Of a stretch of DNA of 64,000 bases, positions 28,486 through 37,214 are shown in pieces. A program made the translations under genes and the position numbers. How positions within the stretch are numbered: position 1 is the first letter of the stretch; each line of letters begins with the position of its first letter. The notes beneath the pieces were generated by a model. The model made no database searches. It was not told the DNA's origin and worked only from the letters and a program-made list of their open reading frames with translations. Source of the DNA: an uncultured Eubacteriales bacterium (GTDB lineage Bacteria > Bacillota > Clostridia > Peptostreptococcales > Anaerovoracaceae); contig UQNJ01000005.1 of assembly GCA_900542295.1 (NCBI GenBank), forward strand, positions 51,162 through 115,161, read 5' to 3'.

Positions 28486-29319
28486 TTAAATGTTAATCAG
28501 TACAAGGGAAGCTGCAATTATAAGCATGGCATATTTTTCTTGTCTGCTCGGCTTTTCCTTAAAGACCAGATAATTGATTATACTTACGGCCAGTATAACG
28601 CCTGCACTTAATATCGGAAAAACCGCATATGCAGGCATCCTTGATACAGCTAAAAGAGTAAAGTAAAGTCCCATCTGGTTGGGAATTCCGGTAATCGATC
28701 CTGCGATTATATCGCCGGCAGTCATATTCCTATCCTTAACAAGCATTATTACAAAGCTTATTATCATGCAAATGAAAAAAGTATAGAATGTAAACAACTC
28801 TTTCATAGCCGGGTCTCCGTAAATGTCGAATAGCTTTGTATTTAAGTCTGCCGTTCCTCTGACGATAAGGACTACCATCAGCAGCTTAACATCTTTTACC
28901 CCCGCATCTCCGGTTCTGTTTATCATGACTATAGCAAACACTGCCAGAACTATGCCTACCATCTGTATCATCGTCGGAATTTCTGAAAAAAGCACAATTG
29001 ATACAATTGTAGGTATTAAAACTCCAAGCTTGCTGAAAGTTGTAGTCATCGGCGTGCCGTTCTTTCCGGTACTGCTTCTTATAACCAGCATTCCGGCAGT
29101 CATGCAAATGCCGTTAAACACCGCAAGAAGCAATGCAAACAAGCCCTCACTGCTATTATAGAACAGCACCTTCTCATCCATTATTAAATACGATAGTATG
29201 GTGCATACTATGAAAGTAAAAACTGTTGCCACATACCTGTTGCCATGATGACTTTCGGTATATCTCATGCCGAAAAATGTTCCGGTGCTTGCTAAAACGG
29301 CTATGCATAAATATATCAT
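28486..29319 (-). CDS. Polytopic membrane protein, DMT-superfamily-like putative transporter (paralog of 6005-6886)
   Basis: 277 aa. Shares ESHHGNRY, NSSEGLF, KNGTPMTTTF, LIPTIVSIVLFSEIP with the copy at 6005-6886. Confidence 0.7.
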   Translation of the reverse strand: MIYLCIAVLASTGTFFGMRYTESHHGNRYVATVFTFIVCTILSYLIMDEKVLFYNSSEGLFALLLAVFNGICMTAGMLVIRSSTGKNGTPMTTTFSKLGVLIPTIVSIVLFSEIPTMIQMVGIVLAVFAIVMINRTGDAGVKDVKLLMVVLIVRGTADLNTKLFDIYGDPAMKELFTFYTFFICMIISFVIMLVKDRNMTAGDIIAGSITGIPNQMGLYFTLLAVSRMPAYAVFPILSAGVILAVSIINYLVFKEKPSRQEKYAMLIIAASLVLINI

Positions 29320-29340
29320 ATCAGATTTACCTCTTACATG

Positions 29341-30549
29341 TTACTTATTGCTCGACAAAATATAATTTAATATAACTCTCATACCCGTCTCTATCTGCGA
29401 GACCTCAGTATACTCATGTATATTATGACTTATTCCGCCTTTACAAGGAATGAATACCATACCGGTAGGACACAGCATGTCAAAGGACATGGCATCATGA
29501 CCGGCCCCGCTTGGCAGTCTGATATAATCAATCTCTTCATTTTCAGCTGCTTTTGCAAGTCCGTTTATAACATTTTCATCAAGAAGCACCAGCCTCTTCT
29601 CGTCTGTTTTTTCCAGGCGATAAGTTACATTCCGTCTGTCGCAAATTTCATTTATGCTGCTTTTTAGCCTGTCCTCCATGCGGCATATGCTGTCCTGATC
29701 AATTCCTCTCATATCTATCTGCAAATTTACATATCCGGGAACTGCATTCATCACATTGGGATGATTTTCTACAGCACCTGTTGTTGCAACAGAATGATAT
29801 ATGCTTTCTTCCCTGCCTGTACTTTCTACTCTTAAAATCACTTCCGCAGCTGCACACAATGCATCTTTTCTGAGCTTCATAGGCGTCGCTCCCGAATGCT
29901 CCGAAAGCCCCTCAATTGTAAGCTCATATCTATGCGGTGCAGCAATTGCCGTAACTATTCCGACGCTTTTTTCAGCGTCTTCTAAAACCCTTCCCTGTTC
30001 TATATGAAGTTCAAGATATTGTTTTAAACCTTTTATAACAGGTACATCCATAGTAAATCCTCTATCTGCCATAAGCTCCGCAAGAGGTCTTCCGTCTCTT
30101 GATATTGCTGCCCCAAGACGCTCCCTATCGACGCTTCCCGTTATAATTCCGCTTCCTATAGTACAGATTTTAAAATTTGAAGATTCCTCACATCTAAAGG
30201 CCGCAGCCGTAACAGGTTCTTTATATCCTTTAAGTTCATTTACTATCAGAAGTCCTGCAAACACGCCTACAACTCCGTCAAACTCACCGCCCTCAACCAC
30301 CGAGTCAAGGTGAGAACCTATCAAGGTGTACCCGGAAGTTCCCTCCGGCATGTTGGAAGCGAAACTGTTGCCCGCCTTGTCCTCCCATACATAAAGACCC
30401 ATTGACTCAGCCGTCTGTCTGAAGATTTCATGCATTCTGTCTTCTTCAGGAGAATATCCCAGCCTTGTGACTCCGCCTCCATCAAGAGCTCCTATATCTG
30501 AAACCTTATTAAACAACTCTGTAATTGAGTCTTTAAAATTAACTTTCAT
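29341..30549 (-). CDS. M20-family amidase (N-carbamoyl-amino-acid amidohydrolase/allantoate amidohydrolase/YgeY-like)
   Basis: Metal-binding region IGSHLDSV and the dimerisation-domain pattern of Zn-dependent carbamoylases. The start is taken at MKVNFKDS, which follows the stop of the upstream gene. The upstream ATG would overlap that gene. Confidence 0.75.
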   Translation of the reverse strand: MKVNFKDSITELFNKVSDIGALDGGGVTRLGYSPEEDRMHEIFRQTAESMGLYVWEDKAGNSFASNMPEGTSGYTLIGSHLDSVVEGGEFDGVVGVFAGLLIVNELKGYKEPVTAAAFRCEESSNFKICTIGSGIITGSVDRERLGAAISRDGRPLAELMADRGFTMDVPVIKGLKQYLELHIEQGRVLEDAEKSVGIVTAIAAPHRYELTIEGLSEHSGATPMKLRKDALCAAAEVILRVESTGREESIYHSVATTGAVENHPNVMNAVPGYVNLQIDMRGIDQDSICRMEDRLKSSINEICDRRNVTYRLEKTDEKRLVLLDENVINGLAKAAENEEIDYIRLPSGAGHDAMSFDMLCPTGMVFIPCKGGISHNIHEYTEVSQIETGMRVILNYILSSNK

Positions 30550-36371: not shown

Positions 36372-36425
36372 TGTGGTCCTTTCCTTTCTGTCCTTGATAT
36401 TCAATCTTCAGACTTCATATCATCG

Positions 36426-37214
36426 CTATAAGATTTCAGGAGCCGTTTCTTCGTATCCCAGTCTTTCGGATAAAAGTTTTGTTTCTTTCAAAACATCAGG
36501 TAAAATTTTAATAATAGCATCATCCACAAATCTGCTGTCAGGTCCTATAATACTTATGCTTCCTACAACATCTCCGTGTTTTCCGAAAATAGGGATTCCA
36601 AGAGCGTTGACATTTTCGTCATATTCACTGTGGCTGACATAATACCCTTTCTTTCTGGTTTCCGAAATTACAGCAGCAATTTCATCATCATCACAATCAA
36701 GATTGCCTGCCATTCTCTGAATTCTGACGCAGCGTTCAAGTTCTTCCTCCGAAAGATATGCAAGTGCGCTTCTTCCGGTAGCTCCTTTTAGCATAGGGAT
36801 ATCCGAGTTCAAAACACATGTACATTTGAGAACTTTTTCGCTTTCCACTTTAGCTATACATGTCATTCTTCCATTCTCGTATGAACATATTGCCAGAGTC
36901 TCACCGCTGAGATCCGCCAGTTTTTGCAGTACCGGCTGTCCCTCACGCTTCAAAAGAGTCAAATTGTCGGTGAGTCTTCCGAGCCTTGATATTTCAACTC
37001 CGAGTATGTATTTACCGTTTTCCGTCAGTTCTACAAAGCCCGAATTCTTCAATGTAGTCAAAATGCGAAATGTAGTGCTTTTGTTCAAAGACAACATTCT
37101 CGAAAATTCCATCAATGAAATTTCTCTCATATTGCCGCTGAAGCATTGCAAGGCACTTAAGGCTCTCTCTACTGAACGAATATTGTAGTCTTTTTCATCT
37201 CTTTGTTGTTTCAT
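36426..37214 (-). CDS. IclR-family transcriptional regulator
   Basis: The N-terminal wHTH reads IRSVERALSALQCFSGNMREISLMEFSRMLSLNKSTTFRILTTL. The C-terminal IclR effector domain follows. Confidence 0.85.
   Translation of the reverse strand: MKQQRDEKDYNIRSVERALSALQCFSGNMREISLMEFSRMLSLNKSTTFRILTTLKNSGFVELTENGKYILGVEISRLGRLTDNLTLLKREGQPVLQKLADLSGETLAICSYENGRMTCIAKVESEKVLKCTCVLNSDIPMLKGATGRSALAYLSEEELERCVRIQRMAGNLDCDDDEIAAVISETRKKGYYVSHSEYDENVNALGIPIFGKHGDVVGSISIIGPDSRFVDDAIIKILPDVLKETKLLSERLGYEETAPEIL

Follow-up and report, generated by a model that had tools for sequence, protein, structure and literature searches.

A candidate operon for cyclic ureide catabolism, with an MslH-like CapA-family protein as putative racemase, in an uncultured Anaerovoracaceae bacterium

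The DNA considered here is a 64,000-nucleotide stretch of contig UQNJ01000005.1, from an uncultured Eubacteriales bacterium of the Anaerovoracaceae; we call the whole stretch the window, and its central feature is an island of seven genes on the minus strand, running from position 37214 to 28486. We propose that this island is an IclR-autoregulated catabolic operon that would convert a cyclic ureide, or a compound that yields one, to an L-amino acid, with a CapA-like protein providing a racemase step and with aspartate as the carbon skeleton, a reading drawn from predicted proteins and gene neighbourhoods whose chances of being right or wrong we judge to be evenly balanced. The initial annotation had seen here the stepwise hydrolysis of a nitrogen heterocycle, and that holds. 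It had also stated that the island matches no canonical pathway, a claim that has to be divided: the core is hyu-like, its two enzymes finding their nearest structures in 1GKR and 3N5F, whereas the CapA/MslH-type protein at the racemase position, a COG0402 hydrolase with Gln in place of Glu, and the association with aspartate and dihydroorotate enzymes do appear undescribed. The genes of the island and the signals that bound it are as follows:

36426..37214, minus strand: iclR, an IclR-family transcriptional regulator of 262 amino acids with HTH_IclR and IclR_C domains (Pfam)
34782..36371, minus strand: NhaC-family (Na_H_antiporter) membrane transporter of 529 amino acids (PF03553, E 1.6e-35)
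33315..34739, minus strand: COG0402 (TRZ/ATZ-type) amidohydrolase of 474 amino acids (Amidohydro_1, E 2.7e-47)
31957..33270, minus strand: CapA/PGA_cap-family protein of 437 amino acids (PGA_cap, E 6.6e-60)
30555..31955, minus strand: cyclic amidase of the hydantoinase/allantoinase/dihydroorotase group, 466 amino acids (NCBIfam scores and PDB search)
29341..30549, minus strand: M20 hydantoinase/carbamoylase-family amidase of 402 amino acids (TIGR01879 and PDB search)
28486..29319, minus strand: EamA/DMT-superfamily permease of 277 amino acids (PF00892 in two stretches, E 6e-13)
37247..37274, minus strand: sigma-70-type promoter TTGACA-16-TATAAT with extended TG (12/12 consensus score)
28339..28380, minus strand: terminator-like hairpin with an 18-bp stem and a T-run, directly 3' of the permease gene

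With start codons chosen by the lengths of close homologues, the intergenic gaps from iclR to the permease gene are, in order, 54, 42, 44, 1, 5 and 21 nt, and the co-directional, tightly spaced arrangement described at the outset is borne out with gaps of 1-54 nt in place of the 1-45 nt given then. The domain calls made at that stage are each confirmed by Pfam and NCBIfam, and what had been left as an unassigned membrane-protein family is in fact the DMT protein, with two EamA repeats and no NCBIfam match. The promoter, directly 5' of iclR, is the top-scoring site of 17 kb scanned. Because promoter and terminator flank the interval 37214→28486, we take it as one transcription unit; upstream of the island lies the rplQ terminator (38210..38183). 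Related loci, numbered with an L below, were sought in genomes with the CapA profile, in metagenomes with the COG0402-hydrolase profile and in individual contigs, and were taken from the best 80 matches per scan. The promoter hexamers and 5' untranslated region (AACAAAGGGAA.GGGAGTTTT) are kept in L001, L005, L006, L088 and L091, and the gene set itself is found again, though reordered, in many independent contigs (50-89% identity). The clustering is no chance arrangement, and the island is a single transcription unit and a coherent, conserved functional unit. The nearest genomes in the scan with the CapA profile are Firmicutes bacterium CAG:145 and Ca. Fimisoma avicola, and the 90% identity cluster of the CapA-like protein has members from metagenome-assembled genomes of Anaerovoracaceae and Clostridiales. 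A 192-codon open reading frame lying between rplQ and iclR on the opposite strand (37582-38160, plus) matches no Pfam family and is possibly not a gene.

The core of the island is, by the closest relatives of its two enzymes, one of classical hyu logic, in which ring opening would be followed by L-specific decarbamoylation. The cyclic amidase has its best PDB match in 1GKR, the non-ATP L-hydantoinase of Arthrobacter aurescens (293 bits, E 2.8e-86), and scores about 215-220 bits, or ~75 below 1GKR, against the D-hydantoinase, allantoinases and dihydroorotases in the PDB. Among NCBIfam models it passes narrowly above the cut-off of allantoinase TIGR03178 (366.6 versus 357.85 bits) and stays below those of the other allantoinase models (NF004839, 340.9/631; NF005960, 279.7/688; here and below, score/cut-off in bits), of the D-hydantoinase model (295/393), and of the ErtD (325.7/650), dihydropyrimidinase and dihydroorotase equivalogs. 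The M20 enzyme exceeds the cut-off of the hydantoinase/carbamoylase family TIGR01879 (351.8/204) and matches the Geobacillus L-N-carbamoylase 3N5F best in the PDB (E 2.3e-62); its top NCBIfam model, the allantoate amidohydrolase subfamily NF006771, is not reached (380.3/399), nor are AllC TIGR03176 (248.6/597.75) and ErtE (305.2/520). From this we infer an L-N-carbamoyl-amino-acid hydrolase. A comparable two-step logic operates in the ergothioneine route on a side chain one carbon longer, where ErtD is the hydantoin-5-propionate amidohydrolase and ErtE the N-carbamoyl-L-glutamate amidohydrolase; the window proteins match both strongly (326 and 305 bits) though under the equivalog cut-offs, but the window has no ergothionase or thiourocanate hydratase.

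The hyu cluster of A. aurescens is composed of hyuP-hyuA-hyuH-hyuC. It has in common with the island an L-hydantoinase-type amidase, an M20 L-N-carbamoylase, a racemisation function and a permease, and it has in common with sister loci of the island a racemase of family PF01177. The window differs in its CapA/MslH-type protein at the place of the racemase, in the extra COG0402 hydrolase encoded upstream, in its NhaC and DMT transporters where hyu has one of NCS1 type (HyuP/Mhp1), in its IclR regulator, and in its host, a strict gut anaerobe.

In public records the more than 3000 homologues of the CapA-like protein all carry the name 'capsule biosynthesis protein' or 'CapA family'. The window protein aligns over its full length with MslH (PDB 8GQ9, E 7e-66), the Ca2+-dependent epimerase of the C-terminal Trp in the precursor of the lasso peptide MS-271, in which E44, N87, H259 and H261 are the metal ligands and H88/D91 and H295/D11 the catalytic dyads (PMC10406935). 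The window protein has the same residue at all eight positions, and an alignment of 13 diverse homologues shows no variation at them; the score against the MslH equivalog NF038314 is 269.2/700. Because the catalytic Asp is residue 15, the protein has no signal peptide or membrane anchor. CapA/PgsA proteins of poly-gamma-glutamate synthesis carry an N-terminal membrane anchor. The CapB/PgsB ligase and CapC/PgsC are absent from the window and from the Pfam/NCBIfam-annotated neighbour clusters of 84 CapA-anchored loci. By these features the CapA-family protein of the island is not capsule-related, but is a predicted calcineurin-fold epimerase homologue of the MslH-like, single-metal kind. The earlier observation that a CapA-family protein has been recruited here is thus confirmed, and the protein is MslH-like and stands at the racemase position. 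What sets the island apart from the MslH system is the setting: there is no lasso-peptide biosynthetic context in the window, and the neighbours are ureide hydrolases and transporters. Since those neighbours are ureide hydrolases, a small-molecule substrate is suggested, and we infer that the CapA-like protein supplies the racemisation step of the pathway. Its putative target would be an N-carbamoyl amino acid or the C5 of a hydantoin, the former being the nearest mimic of the acyl-amino-acid C-terminus of MslH.

Assignment of a racemase to this position can be compared with what occupies it elsewhere. A set comprising the hydrolase, the hydantoinase-type amidase, the M20 carbamoylase, NhaC and IclR recurs in shuffled order, and each of these loci has, in addition, a CapA-like gene or else a member of PF01177, the Pfam family 'Asp/Glu/Hydantoin racemase' (E 2e-47 and 1e-44). 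In L087, L104-106, L109, L110 and L113 the gene for the TRZ-like hydrolase adjoins a PF01177 gene and there is no CapA; most of these sister loci encode, in addition, the amidase and M20 enzyme along with NhaC or IclR. The best PDB matches of the PF01177 protein are allantoin/hydantoin racemases (5LFD, 1.3e-33; 3QVJ). The amidase of L105, L109, L110 and L113 is 60% identical to that of the window, and these loci therefore represent orthologous pathways. Exclusion was counted over non-redundant loci anchored on the hydrolase and flanked by 4 kb or more on both sides. Of these 28 loci, 12 contained the amidase, and those 12 had CapA in seven cases, the PF01177 racemase in four, and both in none. 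No PF01177 gene was found in the window island, by gene list or by Pfam. We read this exchange, on gene content and homology, as a probable non-orthologous displacement of one racemase by another.

A different combination is seen in L153, L154, L158 and L159, where a PF01177 racemase and an M20 carbamoylase occur with a distant cyclic amidase, RidA, a Thr/Ser-dehydratase-like pyridoxal-phosphate (PALP) enzyme, NhaC, the Gln-type hydrolase and DMT. These loci were considered as a contradiction to aspartate as the product and set aside, their amidase being merely 26% identical to that of the window; they probably represent a different amidase subfamily in a parallel pathway with another amino-acid end product.

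The COG0402 amidohydrolase, encoded directly after the NhaC gene, scores far below the cut-off of every NCBIfam equivalog. Its metal ligands H70, H72, H228, H265 and D316 (HxH, His, His and Asp of a mononuclear site) are intact, but the Glu of the strand-5 HxxE motif is Gln231. In alignments this position is Glu throughout a comparison set of the MTA/SAH (methylthioadenosine/S-adenosylhomocysteine) deaminase and three deaminase-like structures (4F0R, 4DZH, 4DYK, 4GBD), AtzA, and the E. coli guanine deaminase (GuaD) and SsnA. The 16 homologues aligned, which go down to 48% identity, show no variation at H70, H72, H228, Q231, H265 or D316, in an adjacent Arg-Glu, or along the C-terminal tail to the final Lys-Leu. 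Because the catalytic Glu is an invariant Gln, we drop the deaminase reading of this protein; it is probably not a classical deaminase but an amide, lactam or C-N displacement hydrolase, and would be a putative feeder that recruits substrate for the core. For a COG0402 superfamily member that opens rings instead of deaminating there is a precedent in SsnA (bioRxiv 10.1101/2025.05.19.654654). With 1883 matches at E<=1e-30, the Gln-type proteins form what we consider a large uncharacterised subfamily, and the name 'MTA/SAH deaminase' that they routinely receive from automatic annotation is probably wrong. Two 2026 'metallo-BSH' preprints found in the literature concern YtcJ-like PF07969 enzymes, which are unrelated.

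The identity of the amino acid is suggested by the neighbours of orthologous cores. A context survey of amidase orthologues, at 47-61% identity to the window amidase, found four contexts, of which the window type is one. Fifteen Bacillaceae loci combine a TRAP transporter, PucR, M20, PyrK, PyrD, amidase and CapA, sometimes with a nitroreductase and often with an aspartase; Lachnospiraceae loci combine an ABC transporter, amidase, CapA, M20 and a dihydroorotase, with PyrK/PyrD in L003 and L008; and racemase-type loci carry a dihydroorotase and an aminotransferase resembling aspartate aminotransferase. By NCBIfam the PyrD of orthologous loci, which occurs with PyrK, is a type B dihydroorotate dehydrogenase (DHODH-B; 383 bits, cut-off 269), the extra amidases are true dihydroorotases (654 and 622 bits, cut-off 576), the lyase is an aspartase (722.6 bits, cut-off 681.2), and the aminotransferase finds its best match in aspartate aminotransferase, below the cut-off (425 bits, cut-off 550). 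Because DHODH-B, dihydroorotase, aspartase and aspartate aminotransferase are the neighbours of orthologous cores, N-carbamoyl-aspartate is the likely substrate of the carbamoylase; by these associations the ring compound is probably 5-carboxymethylhydantoin and/or dihydroorotate, and the product aspartate. In L003 a YjjG-type noncanonical pyrimidine 5'-nucleotidase (13895-14584, 246 versus a cut-off of 159.9) lies between the dihydroorotase and PyrK/PyrD genes of the Lachnospiraceae CapA/amidase/M20 cluster, which hints that this variant may be fed by nucleotides too, besides free orotate.

Such a set of activities has an old counterpart. Lieberman and Kornberg, working in the 1950s on Clostridium (Zymobacterium) oroticum, reportedly described a dihydroorotate dehydrogenase, a dihydroorotase, a ureidosuccinase and a 5-carboxymethylhydantoinase. 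The same set may be present in L003, L007 and L008 (Lachnospiraceae) and in the 15 Bacillaceae loci, where the genes that would match these activities are PyrD/PyrK, in some a dihydroorotase, the hydantoinase-type amidase and the M20 carbamoylase; the correspondence is one of analogy between gene content and classical enzymology. The window island differs from the orotate fermentation of C. oroticum in having no dehydrogenase or dihydroorotase gene and in starting with a Gln-type hydrolase. The searchable literature yielded neither a paper that names ureidosuccinase or carboxymethylhydantoinase nor a molecular identification of these enzymes, and a literature search for a CapA-plus-hydantoinase or orotate-catabolism cluster, ErtC, or hydroimidazolone-degrading enzymes returned nothing relevant.

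Taken together, the general course of the pathway can be proposed. Consider a cell into which a cyclic ureide or its precursor enters through the NhaC-family transporter and perhaps through the DMT permease as well. The COG0402 hydrolase would act as a feeder, turning the precursor into the ring compound, which the L-hydantoinase-type cyclic amidase would then open to an N-carbamoyl amino acid. The CapA-like protein, acting as MslH does, would take the C-alpha proton from a metal-bound acyl-amino-acid carboxylate and return it, or do so with the proton at hydantoin C5, and the M20 L-carbamoylase would release the L-amino acid with CO2 and NH3. In the aspartate version, 5-carboxymethylhydantoin and/or dihydroorotate would yield N-carbamoyl-aspartate and the M20 enzyme would be the 'ureidosuccinase'. 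In this genome, the exit would lead from aspartate to oxaloacetate by transamination and onward by decarboxylation through the neighbouring Na+ pump.

At the same time, several observations weigh against this proposal. The substrate of MslH is a peptide C-terminus, so that activity on hydantoins or N-carbamoyl amino acids would be an extrapolation from it. Ureide genes are lacking from 33 of 54 non-redundant CapA-family loci, and in the non-ureide loci the neighbours are Opp/Dpp-type peptide transporters and peptidases of the M20, S12 and S9 families. Such peptide-type contexts fit a general role of the family as epimerases of N-acyl-amino-acid termini; a neighbour-joining tree, which gave no clean split between proteins of ureide and peptide context, does not support assigning a function to any one clade. 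The conversion of orotate through L-dihydroorotate to N-carbamoyl-L-aspartate needs no racemase, although a racemase in aspartate-type clusters would be explicable if 5-carboxymethylhydantoin or D-forms matter physiologically. The specificity of the aminotransferase is suggested by its best match. Finally, allantoin-type substrates are possible, as the amidase passes TIGR03178 and the displaced racemases resemble allantoin racemases.

Among known purine routes the nearest is the reductive uric-acid / 2,8-dioxopurine cluster, xdhD-ygfK-ssnA-hyuA-ygeW-ygeY-ygeX-yqeA (bioRxiv 10.1101/2025.05.19.654654), in which a ureide likewise passes in turn through a COG0402 amidohydrolase, a hydantoinase and an M20 amidase. 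The proteins themselves are far apart. The window hydrolase is 20% identical to E. coli SsnA, has Gln instead of its Glu, and scores 121.6/444 and 110.1/455.5 against the SsnA models NF005540 and TIGR03314; the amidase is 29% identical to E. coli HyuA; and between the M20 enzyme and E. coli YgeY BLASTP detects no similarity (E 3.9). Nor do the island or its immediate neighbours encode xanthine dehydrogenase (XDH/XdhD), a reductase (YgfK/UacX), YgeW carbamoyltransferase, YqeA carbamate kinase or YgeX diaminopropionate lyase. Direct comparison with the E. coli proteins thus upholds the initial view that the island is distinct from the ssnA-hyuA-ygeY urate cluster, and its separation from the reductive pyrimidine route stands as well. 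The clostridial pathway from xanthine to formiminoglycine (Rabinowitz) was also rejected, as it leaves both the CapA/racemase exchange and the dihydroorotate/aspartate links unexplained.

The alternatives that remain to be weighed keep the island catabolic but change its substrate or the task of one of its enzymes. A generic hyu system, salvaging or detoxifying assorted 5-substituted hydantoins and N-carbamoyl amino acids such as the products of carbamoylation by cyanate or urea, would accord with a core nearest to the biotechnological L-hydantoinase and L-carbamoylase, enzymes of broad specificity, and with the wide differences in gene order and accessory genes among loci. A dedicated regulator with a conserved operator motif, two transporters and an extra conserved hydrolase nonetheless imply a defined substrate, as does the repeated association of the core with aspartate- and dihydroorotate-specific enzymes, and we consider the generic system unlikely. 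Allantoin utilisation would cast the amidase as allantoinase, the CapA-like protein as a substitute allantoin racemase, the M20 enzyme as allantoate amidohydrolase and IclR as an analogue of AllR, and would leave ureidoglycine or ureidoglycolate to the COG0402 hydrolase and/or the aminotransferase. It can call on the passing of TIGR03178 (366.6 versus 357.85), on the allantoate amidohydrolase subfamily as top M20 model (380/399), on the best match of the displaced PF01177 proteins to allantoin racemases (5LFD, 1.3e-33), and on the membership of AllR in the IclR family, the AllR model giving 69.7 bits for the window regulator. Yet the remaining allantoinase equivalogs (341/631, 280/688) and AllC (248.6/597.75) are far under their cut-offs, the PDB allantoinases lie ~75 bits under the L-hydantoinase, and the island has no ureidoglycine (cupin) aminohydrolase, ureidoglycolate lyase/dehydrogenase, oxamate carbamoyltransferase or carbamate kinase. 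The PyrD/PyrK, dihydroorotase and aspartase found beside orthologous cores, moreover, play no part in allantoin breakdown, and we regard allantoin as a quite unlikely substrate.

More radical changes of role are less probable again. In a catabolism of 2-amino- or 2-alkylamino-imidazolones (creatinine-like compounds, or arginine-derived hydroimidazolones such as MG-H1), the hydrolase would displace the C2 amine in the manner of AtzB/AtzC and deliver, for example, ornithine together with a 5-substituted hydantoin for the core. Membership of the hydrolase in the TRZ/ATZ group would suit this, as would the ornithine, ProC, ADI/DDAH-like and Orn/Lys/Arg decarboxylase genes beside hydrolases that occur without the core, and the frequent pairing of hydrolase and DMT genes, if the permease exported a ring by-product. 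But these are arguments from context, the hydrolase has lost the Glu by which AtzA/TrzN-type enzymes and deaminases protonate the ring nitrogen, the links of the core to dihydroorotase, DHODH and aspartase are left unexplained, and the literature search gave no support, all of which makes the idea very improbable to us. We give the least credence to a CapA-like protein that cleaves the substrate at an amide or ester bond, in which case four hydrolases would act in series and nothing would be racemised. Its fold belongs to the metallophosphoesterase superfamily, which hydrolases dominate, and most CapA-family members sit among peptidases; against this, the residues of the one-metal MslH site and of both His/Asp dyads do not vary in the family, and reciprocal replacement by a PF01177 protein of the allantoin/hydantoin-racemase type would be hard to explain.

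The proposed cyclic ureide operon also has regulatory and transport features that recur among its relatives. The IclR protein reaches no NCBIfam equivalog, its top model being BhcR (110/350 bits). Its candidate operators have the form GTTTYAT-N3-RYRAAAC, which occurs at two sites in the whole window of 64 kb, where 0.02 would be expected:

37377..37393: distal candidate IclR operator, the palindrome GTTTTATacaATAAAAC, upstream of the promoter (inverted repeat I2 in the window)
37208..37224: proximal candidate IclR operator, the second motif site, overlapping the iclR start codon

The same two-site geometry is present in L001, L002, L005, L006, L088-L092 and L103, and orthologous loci have a candidate operator at the equivalent position of -171 to -173. 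In 2.62 Mb fetched around related loci, all occurrences of the motif (35/35) fall at -300..+11 of an IclR start, and 22 of 28 IclR-containing loci have it. These findings support autoregulation of the operon by IclR through the predicted operator, and the IclR control claimed initially gains backing from the conserved motif. A perfect 9-bp inverted repeat (TGATATTTT-N4-AAAATATCA, 37295-37316), 20 bp upstream of the -35 hexamer, was considered as the operator and rejected; it is conserved in no related locus and is probably not the operator. As for transport, the NhaC-family protein is presumed to be the uptake system, and its gene occurs in 39 related loci, mostly directly upstream of the COG0402 hydrolase gene. 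A DMT permease gene directly follows a hydrolase gene in about 15 loci, and does so again elsewhere in the window (6005-6886).

Downstream of the island, beyond its terminator, lies a further set of minus-strand genes whose domains were assigned by Pfam and NCBIfam:

23795..28306, minus strand: Na+-translocating biotin decarboxylase unit
22538..23791, minus strand: AspC/TyrB-like class-I aminotransferase
22106..22534, minus strand: AsnC/Lrp regulator
22039..22019, minus strand: terminator of the downstream unit

The Na+-decarboxylase operon and aminotransferase reported here at first are both present, along with a gene for an AsnC regulator. The decarboxylase unit comprises a short 12S-type carboxyltransferase, OAD_gamma, a biotin carrier, OAD_beta and an OadA-type 5S subunit. 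It has two differing carboxyltransferases, one 12S/MmdA-type of 420 amino acids (190.9/998.8 bits, in two stretches) and the other the OadA-type 5S subunit (685.8/718), and this hybrid composition is unusual. The OadA and aminotransferase genes overlap by 4 nt, as do those of the aminotransferase and AsnC, and in this genome aminotransferase and AsnC are translationally coupled to the OadA-type subunit. The two genes directly follow the M20 gene in L001, L002, L091 and L103 and follow OadA in L005 and L088-90, and in the window's own clade the AspC-like aminotransferase and AsnC always follow the island. The decarboxylase unit is not conserved beside the island in relatives, where only OadA is found, in L005 and L088-90. 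The suggested exit of carbon through oxaloacetate thus remains plausible, but the decarboxylase is a separate unit, absent or partial in the closest relatives, and its link to the island is specific to this genome. An AspC-like paralogue in the same sequence cluster as the 23791..22538 gene is encoded at 58644-59891 (minus).

Gln-type hydrolases are also found without the core genes, often in 2-4 copies per locus. Their neighbours then include ornithine-fermentation genes (L085), ProC (L141-145), an ADI/DDAH-like gene (L118), an Orn/Lys/Arg decarboxylase (L139), sigma54 PrdR-like regulators, amino-acid permeases and peptide ABC transporters. In L085 (7852-13026), three tandem Gln-type paralogues are grouped with a GNAT acetyltransferase, two M20 peptidases, an amino-acid permease and two alanine-racemase-family genes, and the group adjoins a complete ornithine-fermentation cluster with an ornithine racemase-like gene, OraS/E, 2,4-diaminopentanoate dehydrogenase and OrtA/B. 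The window holds a second locus of this kind at 11433..5196 on the minus strand, syntenic in L164:

10006-11433, minus strand: SNF-family Na+ symporter
8540-9928, minus strand: sigma54 PrdR-like activator
6887-8371, minus strand: Gln-type COG0402 hydrolase paralogue, 48% identity
6005-6886, minus strand: DMT permease paralogue
5196-5885, minus strand: xanthine phosphoribosyltransferase (Xpt), at the end of the locus

Further along that side of the window are a glycyl-radical enzyme of the PFL2/3 family (587-2965, minus; 664.6/678.2, with 586/1100 for the HypD model) and, adjoining its gene, a 620-residue AraC-type regulator (3236-5098, plus); no activase gene for the enzyme was seen on that side inside the window.

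If the CapA-like protein is indeed a racemase, the MslH mechanism, with its one metal and two His/Asp dyads, would be a widespread catabolic class reaching beyond ribosomally synthesised and post-translationally modified peptides, and the protein would offer a new type of racemase for the industrial hydantoinase process. The Gln-type COG0402 family represents a large family of amidohydrolases that is probably misannotated at present. There is a slim chance that the island goes further and represents an undescribed pathway of gut bacteria with two new activities, an MslH-type racemase of small-molecule hydantoins or N-carbamoyl amino acids and a Gln-type hydrolase that opens rings or displaces amines, with the core as the missing genes of 5-carboxymethylhydantoinase and ureidosuccinase. 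Its nutrient would then be an unrecognised cyclic ureido or guanidino compound, for example an arginine-derived hydroimidazolone glycation product split into an amino acid and a hydantoin. The amidase/carbamoylase core that lies beside DHODH-B, dihydroorotase and aspartase provides candidate genes for the 5-carboxymethylhydantoinase and ureidosuccinase of orotate fermentation.

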